From: an uncultured Planctomycetia bacterium
GTDB taxonomy: Bacteria > Omnitrophota > Gorgyraeia > 1-14-0-20-64-10
Direction of reading: 5' to 3'
Assembly (NCBI GenBank): GCA_964603095.1
Contig: CAZRTR010000001.1
Span: 8,723-72,722 of the forward strand
Length of the DNA: 64,000 bases
Shown here: piece by piece, positions 8,531 to 18,555 of the stretch
Layout of the letters: each line of letters starts with the position of its first letter
How positions within the stretch are numbered: position 1 is the first letter of the stretch
Notes under the pieces: generated by a model
Told to the model about the DNA's origin: nothing
The model's database searches: none
The model's input: the letters and a program-made list of their open reading frames with translations, nothing else
Program-made: the position numbers and the translations under genes

Positions 8531-9586
8531 TTAGGAGAGCCCCTCCGTCTCTTCCAGCCCGCACATCAGGTTCATGTTCTGCACCGCCTGGCCCGCCGCC
8601 CCTTTGCCCAGATTGTCGATGGCAACCAGCAGGATGGCCAGCCGGTGTTTCCGATCCACCTTCAGCCCGATCTCGCACCGGTTGGACCCTTCCACCGATT
8701 TCACCTGCGGCCAGATCCCCTCCGGCAGGATCCCGATGAACGGCTCTCCTTTATAGGCGCTCCGATAGATCGAGCGGACCTCCGATTCGCTCAGGGCCTT
8801 GGTGAGCGGCGCGTAGATTGTGGCGTACAGCCCCCGGTTCATCGGGACCAGGTGCGGCACGAAGACCATCCTCATGGGCCGGCGGCTCAAGCGGCTCAGC
8901 TCCTGCTCCATCTCCGGCATATGCTGGTGGCTGTTCACCCGGTAGGCCCGCAGATCCTCGTTCACCTCGGAGAAGAGCAGCTCCTCCTTGAGGGAGCGCC
9001 CCGCCCCGGTCACTCCCGATTTCGCATCGACGATCAGCCCCTCCTTTTCCAGAAGCCCCTGCTCGGCCAGGGGGGCCAGGCCCAGCAACACGGCGGTCGG
9101 GTAGCAACCGGGGTTGGCCACCAGGCGGGCCGATCGGATCGAGTCCCTGGCCCACTCCGTGAGGCCATAGACCGACTCCTTCAACAAGGTGGGGCGCTTG
9201 TGCTTCATCTGATAGGCCTGAAGGAACTTCTCGGCCGACTTGAGCCGGAAATCTCCGCTTAAATCGACCAGTTTGGCCTTCGGCTTTCGGAAAATCTGCG
9301 GGACGATCTCCATCGCCACCCCATGCGGCAGGGCCAGGAACAGGAACTCCGCCGCATCGGTCGCCTCCTTCACCCGAAAAGGGTGGATCCGGAGTCCCGC
9401 GGCCCGTTCGGTCTGGAGGAGTCCCCGCAAAGGAGGCACCACCTCCTCCGCTGGGCGCGCCTTCTCCACCCGCCGGGCGGCCAGGTATTGAACAGAAACC
9501 TCCGGATGCTTGAGCAGGATCTTGAGCAGCTCCTGCCCCGCGTACCCGGTGACTCCTATGATTCCGACCGATATTCTCGCCATCAA
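8531..9586 (-). CDS. argC: N-acetyl-gamma-glutamyl-phosphate reductase
   Basis: GVTGYAGQEL NAD-binding region and an active-site Cys region. It is the first gene of the arg cluster. Confidence 0.9.
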   Translation of the reverse strand: MMARISVGIIGVTGYAGQELLKILLKHPEVSVQYLAARRVEKARPAEEVVPPLRGLLQTERAAGLRIHPFRVKEATDAAEFLFLALPHGVAMEIVPQIFRKPKAKLVDLSGDFRLKSAEKFLQAYQMKHKRPTLLKESVYGLTEWARDSIRSARLVANPGCYPTAVLLGLAPLAEQGLLEKEGLIVDAKSGVTGAGRSLKEELLFSEVNEDLRAYRVNSHQHMPEMEQELSRLSRRPMRMVFVPHLVPMNRGLYATIYAPLTKALSESEVRSIYRSAYKGEPFIGILPEGIWPQVKSVEGSNRCEIGLKVDRKHRLAILLVAIDNLGKGAAGQAVQNMNLMCGLEETEGLS

Positions 9587-9596
9587 AAAGAAATCG

Positions 9597-9667
9597 ACCT
9601 ATCCTCTGCTCCTTCGCCGGGTACCAGGTCCTGGTACCCCGATGAGAAAGGATAGGTCGTCAGGACC
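9597..9667 (-). terminator. rho-independent terminator downstream of rpsI
   Basis: A long nested hairpin is present on the minus strand (outer arms gacctatcc/ggataggtc, inner arms ggtaccagg/cctggtacc). It is followed by ATTTCTTTTT and sits immediately before the argC start. Confidence 0.6.
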
Positions 9668-10045
9668 TTAACGTTTAGTCCACTGGAACCGCTTGCGGGC
9701 TCCCTTTTGTCCGTACTTTTTCCGCTCCTTGACCCTGGAATCCCGAGTGAGAAACCCCCCCTTTCGAAGGGTTCCCCGCAGCCCCTCCTCCGCCTGGACC
9801 ACCGCCCGGGCCAGCCCCAACCGGAGGGCCCCGGCCTGGCCGCTCAAACCGCCGCCGGCGACATGGGCGGTAAAATCGAACCGGCCCACAGTCTGTGTGG
9901 CGACCAGCGGCTCCCGGATCAGCGACTGGAGTGACAGCCGGGGAAAATAGACCTCCATCTTCCGGCCATTGACCAGAATCTGGCCCGTCCCGGGCTTGAG
10001 ATGCACCCTGGCGACCGCCTCTTTTCTTCGACCGGTCATGGGCAT
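9668..10045 (-). CDS. rpsI: 30S ribosomal protein S9
   Basis: [16 protein letters not shown]...[16 protein letters not shown]. The true start is inside a longer ORF and overlaps the rplM stop as ATGA. Confidence 0.9.
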
Positions 10046-10479
10046 GGGCTTCCTGATCCCTTCAGTTGGGCGATATGCGGATGCTCCGCCCCGGCGTAGA
10101 TTCGAAGGTGCCTGGCCACCTGCCGGCCCAAAGGGCCGCGGGGCAGCATTCCGACGACCGCGTGGCGGATCACCTCCGTCGGCCGCCGATTCAAAAGCCG
10201 GGAGAGGGGTTCTTTCTTCAGGCCGCTCGGATACCCGGAGTAGCGGGTGTAGATCTTGGAATCCAGCTTGGTTCCGGTCACCCGGATCTTCTGGGCGTTG
10301 ATCACCACCACCCCATCCCCGCAGTCGACGTGGGGGGTGAAGGTGGGCTTGTGCTTGCCGCGCAGGAGAACAGCCACCCGCACGGCCAAACGCCCCAGCA
10401 CCTGGCCCTGCGCATCGACGAGATGCCATTTCCGGGTCACCTCGCTCGGTTTCAATTGGAATGTTTTCTGCTCAATCAT
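10036..10479 (-). CDS. rplM: 50S ribosomal protein L13
   Basis: [23 protein letters not shown]... matches the L13 family. The start is trimmed from a 174-aa ORF. Confidence 0.9.
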
Positions 10480-10495
10480 CGAAACCTCTATGCTA

Positions 10496-11623
10496 TCAGG
10501 AAGGGAGGAAAAATTCCATATCAATCCATTCCCTCGCCTTGAGCACTTCCACCTTGACATGGAGCGGCCCCTCCCGCGCCGAGAGGGGCATCTCCCCCAG
10601 CAGGGAAGCCCCGTCCTGGGAGGAGGTGAAGAAGCCGGTGATCGGCCTGGGCCCGTCCGGGTTCAACACCCAGCGGCCCTGCAAGGATCGGGTATCGACG
10701 GGGCGGTTGAGGTGGTCGTTCACGTACAGGATCAGGCGGCTCTCCTTCTCCCGGATCAGCTCGTAATGGAAGATGTCGTTGGCATCCCCAAAGTATCCCC
10801 CGTGCCGTGGGCCATGGGCGGCTGTCTTCTCCAGCGCGGCGGAGAGGGCGAAATCGGTTCCCATCGCGACGAAGAAGCCGATCAGCAGTCCGATCTCCAC
10901 AATTGCCTCCCCCTTGAGGATCCGGCCCAAGTGGAGCAGCTCCCCCACAATATAGAGGATCGTTCCGGCCGCCAGGGCCAGGCAGAAGACCTCGGTGGTT
11001 TTGCTGACCCAGGCCGATCCGGCCACCGCCCCCAGGAAGGTGGGGCCTCCGGCGATCACCCCCGTCAGCCCCAAGAATCCCCAGCTGGCCCGGTGCCCGG
11101 ATAAGGGGGCGGCGATCCCGAACCCTTCCGTGGCGTTGTGGAGGGCGAAGCCGATCGCCAGCAGCCAGGCCAATTCCCTTGCCCCGGCCGCGTGCCCCTG
11201 CCCGATTGCCAGCCCCTCGCTCAAGTTGTGCAGCCCCAGCCCCAGGGCGATCATCAGGGCCAGCTGCTTGGCCCGCCGGGCCGGCGGCACCTCATCCTTG
11301 GCCGAGCCGATGAACCGCTTCTCGAACCAGACCAGGCCGAGCAGCCCGATCGAGAAGCCCAGGACGAAGATCCCTCCGTACCGGAAGGCGCCGGAGAGGG
11401 AGCCGCCGCTCACCGCCGCCTGTTCCACCATCTCCTCGATCTCCTCGATCAGATGGCCGGCGATCTCCACCAGGAGGAAGATCAGAATCCCGGTGGAGAC
11501 GGCGTTCAAGAAGGCCTTGGCCTTCTTCGACACATGCGCCAGCCGGGCGATCGGCAAGCCAAGGAAGATGGTCCCTCCCGCGATCAGCCCCAGAAACCAG
11601 GGAGACGAGATGCTTATTCCCAT
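10496..11623 (-). CDS. ZIP-family (ZupT/GufA-like) metal permease with an extra C-terminal soluble domain
   Basis: Eight predicted TM helices with HNLSEG and HNATEG signatures. A roughly 105-aa hydrophilic, beta-rich C-terminal extension has no recognised match. Confidence 0.75.
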
Positions 11624-12147
11624 TCCTCTGCTTCAACAATCTGGAATCGGATCCGGATCCGGATCGATCCCGAGACCGGAATCCCGGCCCGGCGGGCCGG
11701 AATGAATATCCATTTTGCCACAGCCGATGCAGCCACTTCATCCAAAATCACCGATCCGGAAGAGCTCTCCATCACCACGAGAAAGGCCCTTCCCTGGGGA
11801 TTCACCTCCACCCAGAGGGAGGTAACCCCCTGGATTCCGCGACGAAAGGCCTCCGGCGGATAAGGAGGCGGTGGATTTCGGAATGACCGGGGTGCGGTGG
11901 CCTCTACCCCTTCCACCTCCGAAAGCGCCGTCACCGGCTCCGCAACCTTCTTCTGTGGGACCGGCTCGATGTTCAGGGAGGCCCGGGGTGGGGTCGGCTT
12001 TGAACGGAAGACTACCGCCACTTTCGCCTCTCCTGGAGTCGCTTCGAAGGAGGGAGGGGTTTGCCTCCAGCCGACTGTTCCGACTGCGGCTCCCGTATGG
12101 AGCAACAGTGAACATCCGAGCGCGATCATCCACCGGGGGTTCATCAA
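11614..12147 (-). CDS. tonB: energy transducer TonB
   Basis: N-terminal anchor, Pro-rich spacer, and a TonB C-terminal domain (PPPYPPEAFRRGIQGVTSLWVEVNPQG...). Confidence 0.8.
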   Translation of the reverse strand: MMNPRWMIALGCSLLLHTGAAVGTVGWRQTPPSFEATPGEAKVAVVFRSKPTPPRASLNIEPVPQKKVAEPVTALSEVEGVEATAPRSFRNPPPPYPPEAFRRGIQGVTSLWVEVNPQGRAFLVVMESSSGSVILDEVAASAVAKWIFIPARRAGIPVSGSIRIRIRFQIVEAEEWE

Positions 12148-12593
12148 TCGGCCTCCTCCTTCTTCGGCTCCACGGCCAGAACCACCTGCTTTGCACCGCT
12201 TTGCCGGGCCAGATCCAGGACATCGACGACTCTTTGGTGGAGAACCTCCTTATCCGCGTTGATCACCACGGGCCTTTGGGGGCTGGAACCGGACACCGCT
12301 GCGGAGCCGACCAGGGTGCGCAGGCGAGAGCTCAAGTCCCCCTCCGTCACGCGGGTTTCCCCGAGGAAAATCTCTCCGGAGTTTCGAATGAAGATCTGAA
12401 TGGACTTGAGCTCCCTGCGGAGGGTTTCTCCGGAGGAGGCGTGGGCTAGGTCGACGGGGATTCCACGTTGCAGAACCATGGCGGTGGCGATATAGATGAA
12501 GAAGGTCAACAGCAGGAACATGCAGTCGATCAAAGGGACCATCTCGATCCTCGCTCGGCGCCGCGAACGGGAGAATCGACGCGTCGAACGCAT
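12144..12593 (-). CDS. exbD: biopolymer transport protein ExbD/TolR
   Basis: MVPLIDCMFLLLTFFI membrane helix followed by a periplasmic domain, as in the ExbD family. Confidence 0.85.
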   Translation of the reverse strand: MRSTRRFSRSRRRARIEMVPLIDCMFLLLTFFIYIATAMVLQRGIPVDLAHASSGETLRRELKSIQIFIRNSGEIFLGETRVTEGDLSSRLRTLVGSAAVSGSSPQRPVVINADKEVLHQRVVDVLDLARQSGAKQVVLAVEPKKEEAD

Positions 12594-12595
12594 CT

Positions 12596-13237
12596 TTACC
12601 TTTCCGCCTCCAGAACTTCCAAGGAGCTGCTTGCCCTTTCCTTCGCCTGTGTATAAAGAATCTCGAACTCGTGGGCGTACCGCTCCAGGCGGAAGGCGAG
12701 CCGGTCGCTCAAAGTCAGGAACAGATTGTAGAAGACCAGGGCTGGCATCGCGATCCCCAGACCGAACTCGGTGGTGATTAATGCCTCGGCGATCCCGACG
12801 CTGACCGCCTGTGGGGTGGGCGAAGCATGACCCAGCAGGTCGAAGGCCTTGACGATCCCCATCACCGTCCCGAAGATTCCCAGGAGAGGAGAGAGGGTGA
12901 TCACCGTATCCAGTCCGGGAAGGGTTTCCCGGGTTTTTTCATCTGCCTCATCGACAACCAGTTCCAAGGCGTCGGCGAGAGGTCGGTCTCCGTGTTTCAA
13001 GGCGCTGACCAGCGCCTGGATTCCGGGGTGGCGGCTTTCCTTGCCCATTCGCAAAGCTTCCTTCAGGTGCCCATGCCGGATCTGCTCCAGCCATCGGTCC
13101 AGCTCCTCCGGGCTGGAGCGCTTCCGATGCTGTCCCCAGAAGAGAAGCCGCTCCACAATGAGGGCAACACCCAGGACGGAACAGGCCAACAGGGGCCACA
13201 TGACCGGCCCCCCTTTTAGGAACCACGACACCAGCAT
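12596..13237 (-). CDS. exbB: MotA/TolQ/ExbB proton channel
   Basis: Three TM helices and the typical ExbB C-terminal helices (LGLLGTVMGIVKAF). Confidence 0.85.
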   Translation of the reverse strand: MLVSWFLKGGPVMWPLLACSVLGVALIVERLLFWGQHRKRSSPEELDRWLEQIRHGHLKEALRMGKESRHPGIQALVSALKHGDRPLADALELVVDEADEKTRETLPGLDTVITLSPLLGIFGTVMGIVKAFDLLGHASPTPQAVSVGIAEALITTEFGLGIAMPALVFYNLFLTLSDRLAFRLERYAHEFEILYTQAKERASSSLEVLEAER

Positions 13238-13252
13238 GGAAAGATCTCCTTT

Positions 13253-15415
13253 CTAGAACTTCAGCTTGACTCCCGCATAATAGGTGCGTCCTGCGGCCGG
13301 CTCAATACCATCCGAGCGGACACGCGAGAAGTAACCTTCGTCCAGGAGATTGTTGATCCCCAGGAAGATGTTGAAAGTATCCTTCACCAGATTCGCCTCT
13401 GCCGTGAGATCCCACACCGCATAGGCGGGAATGGCGGTGAGCCCCGTGCCGCCTGCTGCATTGTCGTCCGCCCAGAAATGATCCTCCACGAACGTCCCCA
13501 GGAGTGCCACCTTGGCCCGATCGGCCCATCGGTAGATGAGGCCGGCTTTCGCCAGGTAGGCGGGGGCGAATGCCGGCTCCAGGCCGGCGCGGGGCCCCTC
13601 ATCAAATTCAGCATCCAGCAGGGAAACGTTGCCATAGAGGCTGAGTGTCCCGAAGCGGTCCAAGGGTGCCAGGTTTAAACCTGGCACCCTAGAAACCAGT
13701 TGAGTCAGGTTGACTTCGCCGGCCAGATCGGCTCCCTGATAGATTGCTTTCCCGACGTTTTGGCGCTGGGTGTTGGAGCCGACGGTGACGGTTCCGAAGA
13801 AATTATCGTACACCGTCCGGAAGATGCTCGTATCGAACTGGAGCCAGGGCAAGGGATTGCCCCTGGCTCCCAGCTCGTACGTCCAGGTCTTTCCCTCGTC
13901 CAACGAGGTCGCCGGAAGGGTGTTGTTCCCGGTGGGGGCCAGGTCATCGAACTGGGCCGGCTTGTACCCCTGCGAGATGTTGGCGTACAACTGGCTGTTT
14001 TTGGGAATGTCATATTGGATTCCTAACCCCACCAGCGGAACGACCGTGAACTCGTCGATGTTGTGGAGGGCAGAGGTCTTGCTGGTATTGAAGTTTTCCT
14101 TGACCCGCTGGTTCAGCAGATCCAAACGGAATCCCGGAACGATCGACAGGTTCCCGAAGAGGAACCGGTTTTCGCCGTAGAGGGCTCCGTAAACCGTCCG
14201 ATAGTCGAAATCGAAAATCGGATTCCCCAGCTCGGTGGGGTACCTTCCTGTCGCGCTGCGGTCCTGAGTGCGGGGACCGCTTGAGGTGTAGAAGGTTGCC
14301 CCGGCGGTCAGCGTCTGGGTGTCGCCGAAGGCCTGGTAATCGTGCCGCACCCGGCTTTCGATCCCCCCAGCGCTCGTCTCGCGGCGGTCCAGGTTGTTCT
14401 GCGTGGAGGTGTTGCTGGTGCGGCGGAGAGACCAGCGGTCGTAGTAACTCCCGTAGAAGATCCAGGAGATCTTTGTGTTGGCAGATACGTCGGTCTCGTT
14501 TTTTAAACTGGCGGCGTACCGGGAGATCTCCAGCCGGTCGCCAGGTCGGGGAGTCTGTTCCCGATTCAACTGATACTGGGCCAGTGTGAGCCGCCCCGGC
14601 TCCCGCGCTTCGCTCTCATGGGCGTCTACATTCAGCGTCCATTTGGATTCGGTGCCGTGGCTGCGGCTAGCGGAGGCCGCACCACTTGTAATCTCAGAGT
14701 CGCGGCGGTGGATCACCTTGGCGCTGCCGCCGCTCACGTCAAATCCCTCGTTGGCCCTGGGCCCATTGGAGTGGGAGTGATACTGGTAAGCCAGCGCTCC
14801 CCAAGGCCCTTGGACCATCGAGCCGCGGTTGAAGGTGCTGTAGGTCCCGAAGGAACCCATGGTATTGGAAGTGGAAGTATGCCACCCTTCCTGCGTGGGG
14901 GTATCGTAGGTGACGTAGTTCAATACCGGACCCGGCTGAGGACCGTAAAGCAGGGCTCCTCCACCTCGGATCAACTCGATTCGTTCTACCGACTCCAGGG
15001 GAGGGGTGTAATAGGTCGTGGAATACCCCAATCGATCCATCCCAATGGGGATCCCATCTTTGAGAGTGAGCAGGTCCTGTGATTCGTGGGGATCGCCGAT
15101 CCCCCGGTAGTTGATGTTCACGATGCTTCGGTTGTTCAGCTCCGAAACCAGCAGCCCCGGCATCTGGTAAAAAGCCTGGCGGTAGTTGTTGTTGTGGATC
15201 GGAGGCAGCCGGCGCAGTGAGGTTTGGGTCGCCTTCTTGCCGGAGTAAATGGTTGTGCCTTGAACGTCTGGAAGGAACGGACCCGCCTCTTTTCTCTTCA
15301 CCGCTTCAACCGTCACTTCCTCCTCCGGAACCGCTTCTTGAGCCATCGCCGCCGGTATTCCTGTGACTGTGAGAATCGCTAGGGCGATCCCGCCCATCCA
15401 AGGTTGAAATCGCAT
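13253..15415 (-). CDS. TonB-dependent outer-membrane receptor
   Basis: Signal peptide, a plug domain with a TonB box, a 22-strand barrel, and a C-terminal ...YAGVKLKF aromatic terminus. Confidence 0.85.
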   Translation of the reverse strand: MRFQPWMGGIALAILTVTGIPAAMAQEAVPEEEVTVEAVKRKEAGPFLPDVQGTTIYSGKKATQTSLRRLPPIHNNNYRQAFYQMPGLLVSELNNRSIVNINYRGIGDPHESQDLLTLKDGIPIGMDRLGYSTTYYTPPLESVERIELIRGGGALLYGPQPGPVLNYVTYDTPTQEGWHTSTSNTMGSFGTYSTFNRGSMVQGPWGALAYQYHSHSNGPRANEGFDVSGGSAKVIHRRDSEITSGAASASRSHGTESKWTLNVDAHESEAREPGRLTLAQYQLNREQTPRPGDRLEISRYAASLKNETDVSANTKISWIFYGSYYDRWSLRRTSNTSTQNNLDRRETSAGGIESRVRHDYQAFGDTQTLTAGATFYTSSGPRTQDRSATGRYPTELGNPIFDFDYRTVYGALYGENRFLFGNLSIVPGFRLDLLNQRVKENFNTSKTSALHNIDEFTVVPLVGLGIQYDIPKNSQLYANISQGYKPAQFDDLAPTGNNTLPATSLDEGKTWTYELGARGNPLPWLQFDTSIFRTVYDNFFGTVTVGSNTQRQNVGKAIYQGADLAGEVNLTQLVSRVPGLNLAPLDRFGTLSLYGNVSLLDAEFDEGPRAGLEPAFAPAYLAKAGLIYRWADRAKVALLGTFVEDHFWADDNAAGGTGLTAIPAYAVWDLTAEANLVKDTFNIFLGINNLLDEGYFSRVRSDGIEPAAGRTYYAGVKLKF

Positions 15416-15475
15416 TCGACAATCTCCTGGGGAAGGCCGTCTCCTCCAAAGGTTTGGTCGGATCGGGCGTGTGTC

Positions 15476-15646
15476 CTACTTTGGATGGCCTCCAGCGGTC
15501 TGGTCGGCTTGACAAACGCGGATCTTCTCGTTCTTCTCGATCTGAACGACCCGAGAATCCTGAATCACCACAGAGACGGTTCCGTAACGAATGGAGCGAA
15601 TCGCCTCCGCAATCCGTTCCAGGACGGTGTCCAACTCCTTCCTCAT
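15476..15646 (-). CDS. YezD/DUF2292-like small protein
   Basis: 56 aa, MRKELDTVLERIAEAIRSIRYGTVSVVIQDSRVVQIEKNEKIRV. It matches the YGSV.I.VQDG.VVQIE.TEK.R signature remembered for YezD-family proteins. It lies between the Fur-family gene and the receptor. Confidence 0.5.
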   Translation of the reverse strand: MRKELDTVLERIAEAIRSIRYGTVSVVIQDSRVVQIEKNEKIRVCQADQTAGGHPK

Positions 15647-16152
15647 GACGGGCGGCGCTTCAAGCAGTCGTGGCAGCGGCCGAAGATCTCGTGCCGGTGC
15701 CAGAGGGCCACGAACCCGTGCCGGCGGATCGCCCCGTCCTGGAACCGCTCCATCATCGGGCTCTGGAACTCGATGATCCGCCCGCATTCGATGCAGACCA
15801 TATGGTCGTGGTGCGGCCGGTCGGCCTTCAGCTCGTACTTCGCCCTCCCGTTGGCCGATCCCACCTCCGCCACCAGGCCGCACTCCTGTAAGAGCTTCAC
15901 CGTCCGGAAGATCGTGGCCCGCCCGATCGTCGGGTCCTGCTTCTTGAGTTGGTCGTACATCTCATCGATTCCCAGGTGCCGCTGGGCGTTCATCAGCGCC
16001 CGAAGGATCTCCTCCCTCTGCCGGGTGAGTTTCAGCCCGTGCCGGCCCAGGTGCTCCTGAAAGGTCTGCAGCACCGTCGCCAGCCAGGCCTTGAACTGGG
16101 CCGGGCGCCGGGCGTGCTTGGGGAACAGGATCACTTCCGCGGGTAGCTTCAC
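15643..16152 (-). CDS. Fur-family transcriptional regulator (possibly Zur)
   Basis: Winged-helix N-terminus, HHDH and two CxxC metal sites (CIECG...CHDC). Its genomic context is a metal-uptake locus. Confidence 0.85.
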   Translation of the reverse strand: MKLPAEVILFPKHARRPAQFKAWLATVLQTFQEHLGRHGLKLTRQREEILRALMNAQRHLGIDEMYDQLKKQDPTIGRATIFRTVKLLQECGLVAEVGSANGRAKYELKADRPHHDHMVCIECGRIIEFQSPMMERFQDGAIRRHGFVALWHRHEIFGRCHDCLKRRPS

Positions 16153-16220
16153 CCCGCCCCTCCCGTTCCCCGCCCCACCTTGTTGAGATTGAGACTTGAT
16201 TTCATCTCATTGAGATCGAG

Positions 16221-16236
16221 TCTCATTATCAGGAAC
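16221..16236. promoter_or_regulatory. Fur/Zur-box-like operator half-site in the divergent fur/NSS promoter region
   Basis: gagtctcATTATCagg lies within an AT-richer imperfect palindrome (gagac...gtctc, repeated TTGAGAT motifs) that resembles the ATCATTATC part of the Fur box. Confidence 0.3.
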
Positions 16237-16246
16237 GGGCGGCGGC

Positions 16247-16275
16247 TTGTCAAGGGAAAAATCAGGTCGTACAAT
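16247..16275 (+). promoter_or_regulatory. sigma70-type promoter for the NSS transporter
   Basis: TTGTCA, a 17-nt spacer, then TACAAT. AAGGAGG lies 6-8 nt upstream of the ATG at 16302. Confidence 0.55.
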
Positions 16276-16301
16276 GTTCCTTAAAACCCAAGGAGGTCCC
16301 C

Positions 16302-17813
16302 ATGACATCCAAACAGCCGCAGCCGGGGATGGAGCCGCACCGACCCCAGTGGAAGAGCCAGTGGGGTTTCCTGCTGGCCGCGGTCGGATCGGCGATCGGC
16401 CTGGGGTCGATCTGGCGATTTCCCTACGTGGCCTACGAGAACGGCGGCGGGGCCTACCTGATCCCTTACTTCATCGCCCTGGTGACGGCGGGGATCCCCC
16501 TCATGATCCTGGAGTATGGGATCGGCCACCAGATGCGGGGCTCGGCCCCGATGTCGTTCGCCAAGGTCCGTCCCCACTGGGAGTGGCTCGGATGGTGGAT
16601 GGTGATCTTTGTGATGTTCGGGATCGTCATGTATTACGCGGTGGTGATCGCCTGGTGCGTCTGCTACCTGGGCTATTCCTTCAACCTATGCTGGGGAGCC
16701 GATCCAAACACCTTTTTCTTTCAACAGTTCTTGGGGGTGACCGCCGGCCCCCAGGTGATCGGGGATGTGCGGACCCCGATCCTGCTGGGGCTGCTGGTCG
16801 TCTGGATCCTCAACTGGCTGATCGTCTTCTTCGGGGTCGAGCAGGGGATCGAGAAAGCGAACAAGATCTTCATGCCGACTCTGTTCGTTCTGATCCTGGT
16901 TCTTGTCGGCTGGATGGCCTTCCTCCCTGGGGCGAGGGAGGGGATCGGGCGATACTTGAAGCCCGATTTCAGCCGGCTGGGGGATCCAAAGGTCTGGATC
17001 GACGCCTATTCTCAGATCTTCTTCACCTTGTCGCTCGGCTTCGGCATCATGGTGGCCTACGCCTCTTACCTTCCCCGCAAGGCCGACATCAACTTCAACG
17101 CCGTCGCCTGCTCCCTGGTCGACACCATCGTCTCCCTGGTGGCCGGGCTGGCCGTCTTCGGGACCCTGGGCTACATGGCGGCGGCCACGGGCAAGCCGTT
17201 CGAGCAGGTGGTCCAGCACGGGATCGGGCTGGCCTTCGTCGCCTACCCCCAGGCGATCGGGCTTCTGCCCAGCTTCTCCCGACTGTTCGGGGTCCTCTTC
17301 TTCCTGACCCTGACGGTGGCCGGGATCGCTTCCTCTATATCGATCCTGGAGGCCTTCAGCGCCGCCGTGATCGACAAGTTCCATTACCCCCGCAGGATCG
17401 TGGTGACGGCCCTGTCGATCTTAGGGTTCTTAGGGGGGATCATCTTCGCTACCGGAGGGGGCCTGGCCTGGCTCGACATTGTGGACCATTTCTTGAGCCA
17501 CTATGGGCTGTTCGCCTCCTGCATCCTCCAGTGCATCCTGGTCGGCTGGATCTACGGGGCGAACCGCTTGCGGGAGCATGTCAACAGTGTCTCTCTCTTC
17601 CCGGTAGGGCGGCTGTTCGACTTCTCGATCAAGTTCTTCATCCCGGCGGTGTTGGCTCTCCTGTTCCTCAACGACTTCCTCAAGGACGTCCGCCAGCCGT
17701 ACGGGGGCTACTCCTGGATCGCCGTGATCCTGATCGGGCGGGACTGGCTCTTCGTCACCCTGATTGCGGCCCTGTTCGTCGCCCTTCGCCCCTGGCGCAA
17801 ATCGGCCGCTTAA
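16302..17813 (+). CDS. sodium-dependent transporter, neurotransmitter:sodium symporter (NSS/SNF) family
   Basis: WKSQWGFLLAAVGSAIGLGSIWRFPY... fits the NSS family, with 11-12 predicted TM helices. It is the only plus-strand gene in the window. Confidence 0.88.
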   Translation: MTSKQPQPGMEPHRPQWKSQWGFLLAAVGSAIGLGSIWRFPYVAYENGGGAYLIPYFIALVTAGIPLMILEYGIGHQMRGSAPMSFAKVRPHWEWLGWWMVIFVMFGIVMYYAVVIAWCVCYLGYSFNLCWGADPNTFFFQQFLGVTAGPQVIGDVRTPILLGLLVVWILNWLIVFFGVEQGIEKANKIFMPTLFVLILVLVGWMAFLPGAREGIGRYLKPDFSRLGDPKVWIDAYSQIFFTLSLGFGIMVAYASYLPRKADINFNAVACSLVDTIVSLVAGLAVFGTLGYMAAATGKPFEQVVQHGIGLAFVAYPQAIGLLPSFSRLFGVLFFLTLTVAGIASSISILEAFSAAVIDKFHYPRRIVVTALSILGFLGGIIFATGGGLAWLDIVDHFLSHYGLFASCILQCILVGWIYGANRLREHVNSVSLFPVGRLFDFSIKFFIPAVLALLFLNDFLKDVRQPYGGYSWIAVILIGRDWLFVTLIAALFVALRPWRKSAA

Positions 17814-17820
17814 CCGATTC

Positions 17821-18204
17821 TCAGTGCTGACCGGCGAGATATCGCTGGGTTTCTTGCAGAAATTCCCTTGCCTGGTCAATCATCGTGCGTACGTCTTCGG
17901 AAGCAAGGTTTGCCTCGATGTCGTAGTCGGCACTCACCCTCTTGTTGAATGCTTGAAGGAGCCAACGGTGATACTTCGGATCGAGCAACTGCGTCTTGGC
18001 AAACTGTTCGCCGAAAGCGGCATGAACACCCCCATGTTTCTTGAACCGCAGGCCCTGTTCTCCCAACAGAGCTTCCGCCACATAAAACATAGCGTAGTAA
18101 GCTCTACTCGCCGACCCCTCCGTGTCGCCATCTTCAAGCAGTCGTTCCGCCGCTCGGATGGCTCGGTAAGCTTTATTGACGAGTCGCTGGGTGGCTTCTT
18201 TCAT
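17821..18204 (-). CDS. HEPN-domain protein (toxin of a HEPN/MNT pair)
   Basis: 127-aa all-helical protein of the HEPN family, immediately downstream of a minimal nucleotidyltransferase. Confidence 0.7.
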   Translation of the reverse strand: MKEATQRLVNKAYRAIRAAERLLEDGDTEGSASRAYYAMFYVAEALLGEQGLRFKKHGGVHAAFGEQFAKTQLLDPKYHRWLLQAFNKRVSADYDIEANLASEDVRTMIDQAREFLQETQRYLAGQH

Positions 18205-18216
18205 CAGGCAAGCGGG

Positions 18217-18555
18217 TTATGCCGCCAGGGCTTCCTCACGAACATTGGCGAGAAACGGGGTGTCTCCGCGAAGCCAGTCTGTTTCGGGCATGAAAACTAC
18301 GGTTACGCTAACACCGTGCTTTAAAGACAGATCCGCCATCAGTTGTCCCGTCCGATCCACTTCTCCGGCGTAGTGCTCGATACGATCCAGCACCACCAGC
18401 ACGTCCAGGTCCGATTCGGGATCGGCTTCCCCGCGAGCGTAAGAGCCGTAGAGGTAGACTCCTTTAAGGCGGCCACCGTAAATCGTTTGAAGCCCTGCCC
18501 TGAGCTCCCCCATGAGGGACATTGCTGCCCTCCTGTCCATCGCTCTTTTTAGCAT
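18217..18555 (-). CDS. minimal nucleotidyltransferase (MNT antitoxin)
   Basis: LYGSYARGEADPESDLDVLVV matches the GS-x9-13-DxD motif of nucleotidyltransferases. A GGAG SD sequence precedes the ATG. Confidence 0.75.
   Translation of the reverse strand: MLKRAMDRRAAMSLMGELRAGLQTIYGGRLKGVYLYGSYARGEADPESDLDVLVVLDRIEHYAGEVDRTGQLMADLSLKHGVSVTVVFMPETDWLRGDTPFLANVREEALAA

Follow-up and report, generated by a model that had tools for sequence, protein, structure and literature searches.

A Fur-headed TonB-ZIP operon, probably for iron uptake, in which the ZIP permease carries a conserved periplasmic beta-sandwich domain

The analysed stretch of DNA (the window; 64,000 nucleotides) stems from an uncultured bacterium of the Omnitrophota lineage. 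By means of ORF calls and a Pfam search, all seven genes of the original prediction were found, tightly packed on the minus strand and in the predicted order from fur to the ZIP permease gene, followed by rplM and rpsI (Table 1). The stop codon of fur and the start codon of the DUF2292 gene overlap in an ATGA, and the reading frames of tonB and of the ZIP permease overlap by 10 nt. The genes exbD and tonB overlap by 4 nt if the TTG start of TonB is used, and abut if the next ATG is used. Only 16 nt lie between the ZIP gene and rplM. The GTG start codon of fur is backed by aligned relatives.

Table 1. Positions of genes, protein domains and regulatory elements in the window.
Feature	Position	Strand	Remarks
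operon promoter, -35 hexamer TTGACA	16248..16253	-	17-nt spacer; TTGAC invariant in five aligned loci
operon promoter, -10 hexamer GATAAT	16225..16230	-	reads ATTATC on the other strand
operator box 1 (candidate), TGAGACTCGATCTCA	16211..16225	-	7-1-7 inverted repeat, 2 mismatches to TGAGACTnAGTCTCA; abuts -10
operator box 2 (candidate), TGAAATCAAGTCTCA	16190..16204	-	3 mismatches; 21 bp downstream of box 1
fur	15643..16152	-	Fur-family regulator, 169 aa, GTG start; PF01475, E 7e-33
DUF2292/YezD-family gene	15476..15646	-	56 aa; PF10055, E 1.3e-17
TonB-dependent receptor gene (TBDR)	13253..15415	-	720 aa, signal peptide, Plug and 22-strand barrel domain
exbB	12596..13237	-	MotA/TolQ/ExbB proton channel; Pfam, NCBIfam
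exbD	12144..12593	-	ExbD; Pfam, NCBIfam
tonB	11614..12147	-	C-terminal TonB domain; Pfam, NCBIfam
ZIP permease gene, whole	10496..11623	-	PF02535, 43 bits (cutoff 35.1)
ZIP permease core	10829..11623	-	residues 1-265, eight TM helices; Pfam, model
ZIP C-terminal periplasmic beta-sandwich domain	10496..10828	-	residues 266-375 and stop codon
probable extended -10 of a separate rplM-rpsI promoter, TGATAGCAT	10490..10498	-	overlaps ZIP stop codon; positional match
rplM	10036-10479		downstream of ZIP gene
rpsI	9668-10063		after rplM

The order fur-DUF2292-TBDR-exbBD-tonB-ZIP was seen again in several Omnitrophota MAGs, and fur-TBDR-ZIP is present in one Zixibacteria MAG. The pairing of a TBDR/TonB system with a ZIP importer, which had been regarded as uncommon, is therefore a recurrent one. 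The 56-residue product of the second gene, previously called YezD/DUF2292-like, indeed scores above the threshold of PF10055 (63.5 bits, cutoff 22), with 36 of the 37 profile positions covered. It is a small cytoplasmic protein whose translation is coupled to that of Fur, and a DUF2292 gene also follows fur in the related loci L003, L004, L007, L008, L014, L018, L019, and L088. Orthology to the sulfur starvation response protein OscA (NF033785) was rejected (36.8 bits versus 85); the two proteins are related only.

The operon promoter consists of sigma-70-type hexamers with an 11/12 match. The ATTATC palindrome that had been proposed as a Fur box is its -10 hexamer; the conserved 7-1-7 repeat is a different element. 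Nine related loci keep a TGAGACTnAGTCTCA-like 7-1-7 motif upstream of fur. It occurs with 0-1 mismatch in L003, L004, L007, L008, L019, and L033, these copies being confined to the region just upstream of fur or to the fur-TBDR gap; for at most one mismatch, the calculated chance expectation is ~0.03 across the roughly 200 kb searched. In the window, L001, and L014, the syntenic position harbours a copy with 2-3 mismatches. The position of box 1 is also filled in L001, L007, L014, and L086. The two boxes of the window are the most degenerate of the motif set (2 and 3 mismatches). Judged from these sequence patterns, they are likely to constitute the operator of the fur operon and are listed as candidates.

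As had been predicted for control of the locus, the operon is headed by the gene of a Fur-family regulator (PF01475, 113.8 bits, cutoff 23.1). The protein is extended at its N-terminus by a conserved stretch (AEVILFP) and contains one HHDH and two CxxC motifs. It aligns to C. jejuni Fur across 140 residues, including PHHDHMxCxxCG and CxDC. The best NCBIfam models were those of Fur (98.6, 89.3, and 80.5 bits, yet below their cut-offs of 146–220), whereas the Zur model yielded 46 bits (cut-off 167). Compared with PDB sequences, C. jejuni Fur scored 116 bits and E. coli Zur 36 bits. A Zur identity was rejected because the model score is far under the Zur cut-off and no znuABC lies within the operon. 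In sequence the regulator thus resembles Fur more than Zur, metal specificity being a property that cannot be reliably read from the sequence of Fur-family proteins. The second-best solved relatives are 5fd5/5fd6 (96 bits), presumably the Rhizobium manganese regulator Mur. This relationship would fit a Mur/Nur-like regulator governing the import of a divalent metal other than iron or zinc (Mn2+, Co2+ or Ni2+), as would the broad substrate range of ZupT, which includes Mn and Co (PMC4771312). We consider such a function very improbable, because the FTR1, ferritin, and NifU genes that accompany the cassette in relatives (see below) point to iron and no Mn- or Ni-specific genes are close by.

The receptor contains a Plug domain (PF07715, 42.6 bits) and a barrel domain (PF00593, 107.7 bits), and orthologues are encoded at the corresponding place in the operons of L008, L014, L018, L019, and L033. 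It had been described as ZnuD-like. However, none of the PDB chains, including those of ZnuD, whose structures have been described (PMC4557270), matched its sequence at E <= 1e-3, and its best NCBIfam similarities are siderophore and FecA receptors, all sub-threshold. MotA_ExbB, ExbD, and TonB_C domains (Pfam) are encoded alongside the receptor. In NCBIfam, the TolQ/TolR models give somewhat higher scores for ExbB and ExbD; tolB and pal are absent beside exbB/exbD. In L008, L009, L018, and L019, too, the receptor comes with the exbB-exbD-tonB trio. Relatives swap the outer-membrane receptor for a small barrel of 250 aa, and where they do so (L001, L086–L088) the trio is missing, as it is from L014, which retains the receptor.

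The ZIP permease has an eight-helix core in the AF2 model. It is related to BbZIP by sequence (E 1e-5), and the top eight structural matches in Foldseek are all BbZIP (TMt 0.59–0.73). In TM4, the motif H132-N133-L-S-E136-G (HNLSEG) aligns to HNLPEG of BbZIP; in TM5, H162-N163-A-T-E166-G (HNATEG) aligns to QDVPEG. Both HNxxEG motifs are invariant across 51 homologues. Orthology to ZupT (NF003243) was rejected at 43.7 bits versus a cut-off of 252, although membership of the ZIP family holds. The eight-helix fold and the HNxxEG motifs are common to ZupT, BbZIP and the permease of the window, but the latter is encoded inside a Fur/TonB operon and possesses an additional periplasmic beta-sandwich of ~110 residues. 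To our knowledge, characterised bacterial ZIPs terminate after TM8. The periplasmic domain is the novel element of the locus.

This C-terminal domain comprises ZIP residues 266 to 375, approximately. The extension is conserved in >100 homologues; among the best 120 listed, nearly all span 94–100% of the ZIP query with 58–91% identity, the six exceptions being truncated (P0059, 86%; P0060, 91%; P0116 and P0118–P0120, 70–73%). It is modelled at pLDDT >= 90 and holds invariant residues; the domain itself was modelled as a beta-sandwich with a pLDDT of 94.3. Conservation in so many homologues and the confident fold rule out a frameshift artefact as its origin and bear out the idea of a soluble, plausibly metal-binding domain. 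The domain is periplasmic, as follows from the even number of TM helices, the K/R-rich TM3-TM4 loop, and the signal peptides on stand-alone homologues. Its motif reads H270-xPR-H274-GG-x-FGD280-A..D..H286-Y-E288 ... Y300-VN-D303, and the wider family keeps H270, H274, H286, E288, and D303. We propose this cluster as the metal ligands. At position 280, Met is common among distant members and Asp is found in the clade of the window, so that D280 would be a clade-specific addition.

No Pfam family matched the domain even at E <= 10, including P19 (Iron_transport), CopC, and cupredoxin, and its family profile had no match among PDB sequences. Membership of the P19/FetP/Tp34 family (PF10634) was rejected on these grounds and because P19 is outside the top 50 folds. 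Among solved folds, Foldseek placed CrdA, a CopC-family copper protein of the periplasm, closest, albeit as a weak match (TM 0.59, E 4e-4, 13% identity). Like CopC, PcoC, and CrdA, the domain is a small periplasmic Greek-key/Ig-like beta-sandwich, and its distant relatives occur with copper-type modules. It differs in the missing profile match, the 13% identity, the ligand set (HxxxHGG...HxE...D), and the Fur/iron gene context.

The gene neighbourhoods of relatives link the domain to metal permeases. The domain also occurs as a stand-alone protein that bears a signal peptide and is encoded beside an EfeU/FTR1 iron permease. In L003 and L004, EfeU/FTR1 and a stand-alone domain fill the slot held elsewhere by the ZIP fusion; the FTR1 of L003 contains the motifs RETLE and REGAE (both REXXE) and scores 215 bits to EfeU. 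These two loci are syntenic with L087 and L088, which have the order ferritin/NifU-fur-small barrel-ZIP~C-terminal domain-NAD synthase-GlnR... and contain the ZIP fusion. The exchange is a non-orthologous displacement. In L014, the domain is encoded separately from a core-only ZIP (fur-DUF2292-domain-TBDR-ZIP), whereas in the window and in L019 it is fused to ZIP, which is Rosetta-stone evidence coupling the domain to ZIP. The domain is genetically coupled to either ZIP or EfeU/FTR1 permeases. It is not obligatory, because the operons of L008 and L018 contain ZIP with no copy of the domain detected within 10 kb. Furthermore, the cassette loci of relatives adjoin ferritin and NifU genes.

Zinc is the best-known substrate of ZIP proteins, and the original prediction pointed to Zur and zinc. 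In a zinc model, a ZnuD-like receptor would take up Zn2+ under Zur control and the C-terminal domain would serve ZIP as a ZinT/ZnuA-like zinc chaperone. Its appeal lies in the permease, a ZIP family member whose best NCBIfam similarity is ZupT and whose best structural match is the Zn/Cd transporter BbZIP, and in the His-rich conserved site of the domain, which is compatible with Zn2+; moreover, TonB-dependent receptors, exbB/D, and zupT belong to the Zur regulon in certain species (PMC6103462). We nevertheless regard it as unlikely. The Zur model gives the regulator 46 bits, as opposed to 80–99 bits from Fur models (36 versus 116 bits for E. coli Zur and C. jejuni Fur), no solved receptor, not even ZnuD, is recognisable by sequence as a relative of the TBDR, and counterpart cassettes rely on EfeU/FTR1, its REXXE motifs intact, and lie beside ferritin and NifU genes. 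Iron is more likely than zinc, since the relatives' cassette uses EfeU/FTR1 and adjoins ferritin/NifU and since the regulator is Fur-like. ZIP/ZupT proteins are able to carry Fe2+ (PMC4771312). The operon probably accomplishes Fur-family-autoregulated import of a free metal cation across both membranes, with iron as the most probable cargo, and the locus is probably a modular Fur-autoregulated cassette that is typical of Omnitrophota-like genomes and has a probable specificity for iron.

Iron import of this kind would proceed as follows. Under metal-replete conditions, the metallated regulator would bind to the two 7-1-7 boxes, which abut the -10 hexamer and cover the start-site region, and would shut off fur-DUF2292-TBDR-exbB-exbD-tonB-ZIP. 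When metal, presumably iron, is scarce, the TonB-energised receptor would carry it into the periplasm. There, the beta-sandwich domain on the periplasmic C-terminus of ZIP may capture the metal by means of the proposed ligands and pass it to the ZIP pore, through which it would reach the cytoplasm.

The operon shares features with several known systems. In ZnuD/Zur systems, too, a Fur-family repressor is combined with a TBDR for a metal passed to an inner-membrane importer, but the regulator in the window is Fur-like, its receptor is not detectably ZnuD-like, ZnuABC is lacking, and the neighbouring genes in relatives are iron genes. A precedent for a Fur-controlled TBDR with a ferrous permease is FiuA-TonB2 plus FeoB of Sphingobium (PMC7376174), where an outer-membrane TBDR likewise works with a free-ion inner-membrane permease under Fur. 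In contrast, all parts in the window, including the regulator, belong to one operon, and FeoB is replaced by a ZIP to which a periplasmic domain is tethered. Every characterised FTR1/EfeU system has a periplasmic metal-binding partner (PMC9174327). P19-cFtr1, FetMP, EfeUOB, FtrABCD, and the window have in common a Fur-linked inner-membrane permease and a small, beta-rich, secreted partner that binds metal, or in the window is presumed to; here, however, a ZIP stands in for FTR1 and is joined covalently, at its C-terminus, to the partner. The likeness of the domain to P19 is one of gene position and presumed role; no sequence kinship with P19, EfeO, or cupredoxins was detected.

HMBD, cupredoxin, and CusF modules occur in fusion with distant family members, and for this reason the domain might bind copper. 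Within an iron operon, it could then, instead of chaperoning passively, act as a copper-dependent redox or relay module like P19/FetP or an EfeO cupredoxin: a His-ligated Cu site together with an acidic iron site would reduce receptor-delivered Fe(III) for ZIP, and would oxidise Fe(II) in the FTR1 versions. A Cu site and an acidic Fe site occur together in characterised FTR1-type partners (PMC9174327), the domain holds the P19/EfeO gene position beside FTR1 in L003 and L004, and its family conserves three His plus Glu/Asp; the copper-type fusions and the CopC-family fold point in the same direction. We still judge this role to be unlikely, given that P19, CopC, and cupredoxin models (E <= 10) and PDB sequences gave no match, that P19 is absent among the top 50 fold matches, and that the Met frequent at position 280 among distant members gives way to Asp in the clade of the window, which argues against a Cu(I) site. 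Tentatively, and with more weight than we give to the copper role, the domain may be the founding case of a hitherto undescribed family of metal-binding beta-sandwiches in the periplasm (HxxxHGG...HxE...YxxD) that serves as a built-in capture or hand-off module for inner-membrane metal permeases. If so, the ZIP of the window would be the first one in bacteria known to carry a periplasmic metallochaperone as a tethered part, and the preference for hard (Fe/Zn) or soft (Cu/Ag) metals may be set by the exchange of Asp and Met at position 280.

A link of the operon to ribosomal genes and Zur, which had been suggested from the adjacency of rplM-rpsI, is not indicated, because these genes have their own conserved promoter position. 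In L001, L005, L006, L007, L014, and L086, rplM is preceded by conserved TTGCA-N17-TAAAAT/TATAAT ... GTTTCC-ATG promoters; the probable rplM promoter of the window has a weak -35. Moreover, the Zur-regulated paralogues do not include rplM/rpsI (L13/S9; PMC6103462), and both observations also count against zinc uptake. The two genes form a separate housekeeping unit.

The locus is a conserved, modular, Fur-autoregulated uptake cassette, which probably imports iron. Most of its parts belong to known kinds; noteworthy is an undescribed periplasmic domain that is either fused to the ZIP permease or partnered with FTR1. ORF calling and Pfam analysis yielded seven closely packed minus-strand genes at positions 10496-16152. 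All members of the original prediction were thus recovered, and the DUF2292 profile matches the small ORF. The genes of fur and DUF2292 overlap within ATGA, those of tonB and ZIP by 10 nt, and the sole sizeable intergenic gap (60 nt) is located ahead of the gene of the TonB-dependent receptor (TBDR). The genes rplM and rpsI follow 16 nt past ZIP, and then argC and argJ. Divergent from fur is a gene for a symporter of the sodium:neurotransmitter family; the gene pair just past it is predicted to be a typical HEPN-MNT toxin-antitoxin module. A search of positions 9000-17000 with Rfam gave no riboswitch or leader, and a terminator scan gave no signal over background and none that was convincing between ZIP and rplM. 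Compared to the NCBIfam equivalogs, ExbB scores higher as TolQ (82.7 bits) than as ExbB (53.6 bits), and ExbD higher as TolR (66.8 bits) than as ExbD (43.3 bits). The trio of exbB, exbD and tonB was read as Ton and a Tol-Pal identity was rejected, because a receptor gene and a TonB_C protein adjoin and tolB and pal are absent; the receptor gene is found alongside in the window and in several relatives.

Features of the cassette, its surroundings and related loci (locus names precede positions outside the window)
Feature	Position	Strand	Details
Fur-family regulator	15643-16152	minus	PF01475, E 7e-33
DUF2292/YezD protein, 56 aa	15476-15646	minus	PF10055, E 1.3e-17
TonB-dependent receptor	13253-15415	minus	Plug and barrel domains
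ExbB	12596-13237	minus	PF01618
ExbD	12144-12593	minus	PF02472
TonB	11614-12147	minus	PF03544
ZIP protein, 375 aa	10496-11623	minus	PF02535, 43 bits (cut-off 35.1)
rplM	10036-10479
Symporter gene	16302-17813		divergent from fur
HEPN and nucleotidyltransferase pair	17821-18555	minus	PF05168, E 1e-16; PF01909, E 1e-10
fur promoter	16253-16225	minus	TTGACA-17-GATAAT
Box 1	16211-16225	minus	TGAGACTCGATCTCA, variant of 7-1-7 palindrome TGAGACTnAGTCTCA
Box 2	16190-16204	minus	TGAAATCAAGTCTCA, variant of 7-1-7 palindrome TGAGACTnAGTCTCA
Symporter promoter-like site	16247-16275	plus	10/12
Window rplM upstream region	10480-10498
Window rplM -10 counterpart	10495-10490		TAGCAT
Predicted lipoprotein	L001:8779-9033
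Predicted lipoprotein	L004:5969-6169
Predicted lipoprotein	L087:8058-8255
Predicted lipoprotein	L088:7778-7987
ZIP	L008:10001-10768
ZIP	L018:10001-10759
ZIP, then rplM-rpsI	L083:4465-6536		HNATEGF motif

The N-terminal 265 residues of the ZIP protein align to BbZIP, including the metal-centre motifs HNLSEG of TM4 and HNATEG of TM5. The AlphaFold model contains eight helices, and its eight best PDB matches are BbZIP without exception. Judged by alignment and model, this part is a bona fide ZIP core; an orthologue of ZupT was ruled out by a score of 43.7 bits compared to the NCBIfam cut-off of 252. The even helix count and the K/R-rich TM3-TM4 loop place the C-terminus of the protein in the periplasm, where that of other ZIPs is located as well. 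Stand-alone proteins of 135-180 aa that consist of the same C-terminal domain also exist, and their typical signal peptides independently support this location.

The original prediction had considered that the C-terminal region might be a frameshift artefact. This origin was rejected on the basis of conservation and a confident fold. Among the best 120 ZIP homologues listed, many of which are from Candidatus Omnitrophota MAGs, nearly all align over 94-100% of the query, and six truncated entries over 70-91%. Invariant positions of the domain include H270, H274, G275, G276, F278, G279, D280, A281, H286, Y287, E288, D303, and N306. A model of the isolated domain, based on 42 sequences, shows an eight-strand beta-sandwich with a pLDDT of 94.3. 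The best solved fold is H. pylori CrdA (TM 0.59, E 4e-4), a CopC-family periplasmic copper protein (PMC9182242); beyond CrdA, just generic Ig folds were found. A Pfam search with the domain gave no match even at E <= 10, and a PDB sequence search with its profile no relative. From these searches, the domain appears to represent an undescribed, structurally uncharacterised family, which adds to the repertoire of periplasmic metal trafficking.

Only 121 clusters emerged at E <= 1e-3 when 1.84 billion representatives were searched with the profile. Close members are ZIP fusions or stand-alone proteins, and distant ones are fused to HMBD (PF19335), cupredoxin, CusF plus a beta-propeller, an ABC-type solute-binding protein, or PrcB_C. 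In an hmmalign alignment of 112 domain instances, 83 of them distant members, the residues H270, H274, G275, G276, H286, E288, Y300, D303, and P308 are retained in 62-82 of the 83 distant members (75-99%). The Fur-linked clade has Asp at position 280, where 54 of these 83 have Met, and the choice correlates with iron-type versus copper-type company. The His3/Glu/Asp constellation and the Asp/Met switch are what would be expected of a metal site. The solute-binding protein fused to the domain in the homologue P0152 has similarities of the PhnS/thiamine class in NCBIfam; it was dropped as a sign of iron because it has no clear match to an iron-binding one.

The related loci differ in permease and outer-membrane component. 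In the window and in L019, the domain is fused to ZIP. In L014 the order is fur, DUF2292, stand-alone domain, TBDR, a core-only ZIP that stops after TM8, rplM, and rpsI. L087 and L088 contain NifU or ferritin, fur, a small protein (in L088 beside an additional DUF2292 protein), a 249-aa barrel, the ZIP fusion, NAD synthase, and a GlnR-like regulator, among others. L003 and L004 have the same neighbourhood with EfeU/FTR1 and a stand-alone domain where the fusion would be; the FTR1 of L003 contains both REXXE motifs (RETLE, REGAE) and scores 215 bits with the EfeU model. Since the domain is retained while the permease is swapped, its function is tied to the inner-membrane step. Every FTR1/EfeU system that has been characterised works with a metal-binding partner in the periplasm, namely P19, FetP or EfeO/M (PMC9174327). 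The domain fills the same slot beside FTR1, but is unrelated to these partners in sequence. L001, L086, L087, and L088 contain a DUF5777-like barrel of about 250 aa in place of TBDR and the ExbBD-TonB set, which would point to small ions, and not bulky siderophores, as the substrate. The system illustrates modular evolution, in which the outer-membrane component alternates between TonB-energised receptor and small barrel, and the inner-membrane one between ZIP and FTR1 permease.

Bacterial ZIP permeases are commonly regarded as stand-alone secondary importers, and we know of no described route of metal to ZIP in the diderm periplasm. The domain, fused to ZIP or encoded beside EfeU/FTR1 in otherwise syntenic operons, is a testable candidate for this missing delivery step. 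L008 and L018 have the complete order fur-DUF2292-TBDR-exbBD-tonB-ZIP, and neither a fused nor a free domain was detected within 10 kb; it is therefore dispensable or encoded elsewhere. In several related cassettes, a predicted lipoprotein of 65-84 aa is further encoded between fur and either the barrel gene or that of DUF2292. It combines a lipobox-Cys signal peptide with a Cys-rich, HMBD-reminiscent pattern (C-x-H-C-x-C-x-M-P ... C-P-x-C-x-C), gave no match in Pfam, and has no copy in the window.

ZIP/ZupT proteins are able to transport Fe2+ besides Zn2+, Mn2+, and Co2+ (PMC4771312). The regulator scores 98.6, 89.3, and 80.5 bits with the Fur models of NCBIfam, 69.7 with PerR and 46 with Zur, every score being under the equivalog cut-off. 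In the PDB it matches C. jejuni Fur with 116 bits and E. coli Zur with 36 bits, and the PHHDHMxCxxCG motif is conserved. By these comparisons, it is closer to Fur than to Zur. The receptor, which the original prediction had named ZnuD-like, has its top, sub-threshold NCBIfam similarities to siderophore and FecA receptors. The name is unsupported, because a PDB sequence search found no solved receptor detectably related to it. In relatives, ferritin and NifU-type genes flank the cassette and use of EfeU/FTR1 is possible; the exchange of ZIP and FTR1 next to a constant domain argues that ZIP serves as an iron permease in the window. A Fur-controlled TBDR that supplies a ferrous-ion permease has precedent (PMC7376174). 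Taken together, iron is the probable substrate; zinc, which a ZIP could also transport, is improbable given a regulator closer to Fur, and other metals make up the remainder.

The promoter of fur is of the sigma-70 type and matches in 11 of 12 positions. The ATTATC sequence that had been taken for a Fur-box-like palindrome is its -10 box, GATAAT, on the other strand. Two inverted repeats, 21 bp apart, abut this -10 box. Fur, PerR, and Zur boxes have the same 7-1-7 geometry, but their classical half-sites differ from the one here. Zur boxes of the 7-1-7 type are mentioned in PMC6103462. Copies of the palindrome TGAGACTnAGTCTCA with 0-1 mismatch lie immediately upstream of fur in L003, L004, L007, L008, and L019; in L033 (a Zixibacteria MAG), such a copy separates fur from the receptor gene. 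The copies in L001 and L014 have 2 mismatches. No further sites at <=1 mismatch were found elsewhere in the loci compared (chance expectation about 0.03, own calculation), and no additional sites of the operator motif elsewhere in the 64-kb window. The layout of promoter and operator can be aligned across five loci. This footprint is a phylogenetically conserved, putative autoregulatory operator, at which, by analogy with the family's mode of action, the metallated regulator would act as repressor. Such a Fur-family operator from uncultured Omnitrophota-like bacteria would open the way to regulon prediction from MAGs. The leader of fur in the window (16153-16189) is G-rich, measures about 35 nt, and carries a GGGAGG Shine-Dalgarno sequence ahead of GTG as start codon; in L001, L007, and L014, the ATG of fur is located within about 10 nt past box 2. 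The promoter-like site of the symporter and the fur promoter are back-to-back and share the -35 region, and the operator boxes lie upstream of the symporter site.

In the majority of cassette variants, the DUF2292 gene comes after fur (window, L003, L004, L007, L008, L014, L018, L019, and L088). Its translational coupling to Fur suggests, speculatively, that the protein assists regulation or the handling of metal in the cytoplasm. The sulfur-starvation protein OscA is only distantly related (36.8 bits versus 85). A PDB sequence search gave only noise and no solved relative, a word-indexed search for homologues of the 56-aa protein just four matches, and a literature search on DUF2292, YezD, and OscA no informative account.

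The ribosomal genes had been regarded as transcriptionally linked to the cassette. The synteny ZIP-rplM-rpsI-argC is conserved in the clade (L001, L006, L012, L014, and L086), with about 1.8 kb inserted in L005 and L007. A comparison of L001, L005, L006, L007, L014, and L086 identified a shared promoter upstream of rplM (TTGCA-N17-TAAAAT/TATAAT), often with an extended-10 TG and followed by GTTTCC and the start codon. The start codon is reached within about 10 nt, such that the leader should be very short or absent. The -10 counterpart in the window overlaps the ZIP stop codon, which contributes the preceding TG; the -35 element is weak, because it is within coding sequence. Given the conserved promoter, rplM-rpsI most probably forms a housekeeping unit of its own, with possible read-through, and Fur/Zur-dependent co-transcription was judged unlikely. 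L13 and S9 are moreover outside the Zur-regulated ribosomal paralogues (PMC6103462); the link is one of synteny and not of regulation. The Actinomycetota MAG L083 likewise has rplM-rpsI after a ZIP of this subfamily; the adjacency may therefore predate the Omnitrophota-like clade, or be recurrent.
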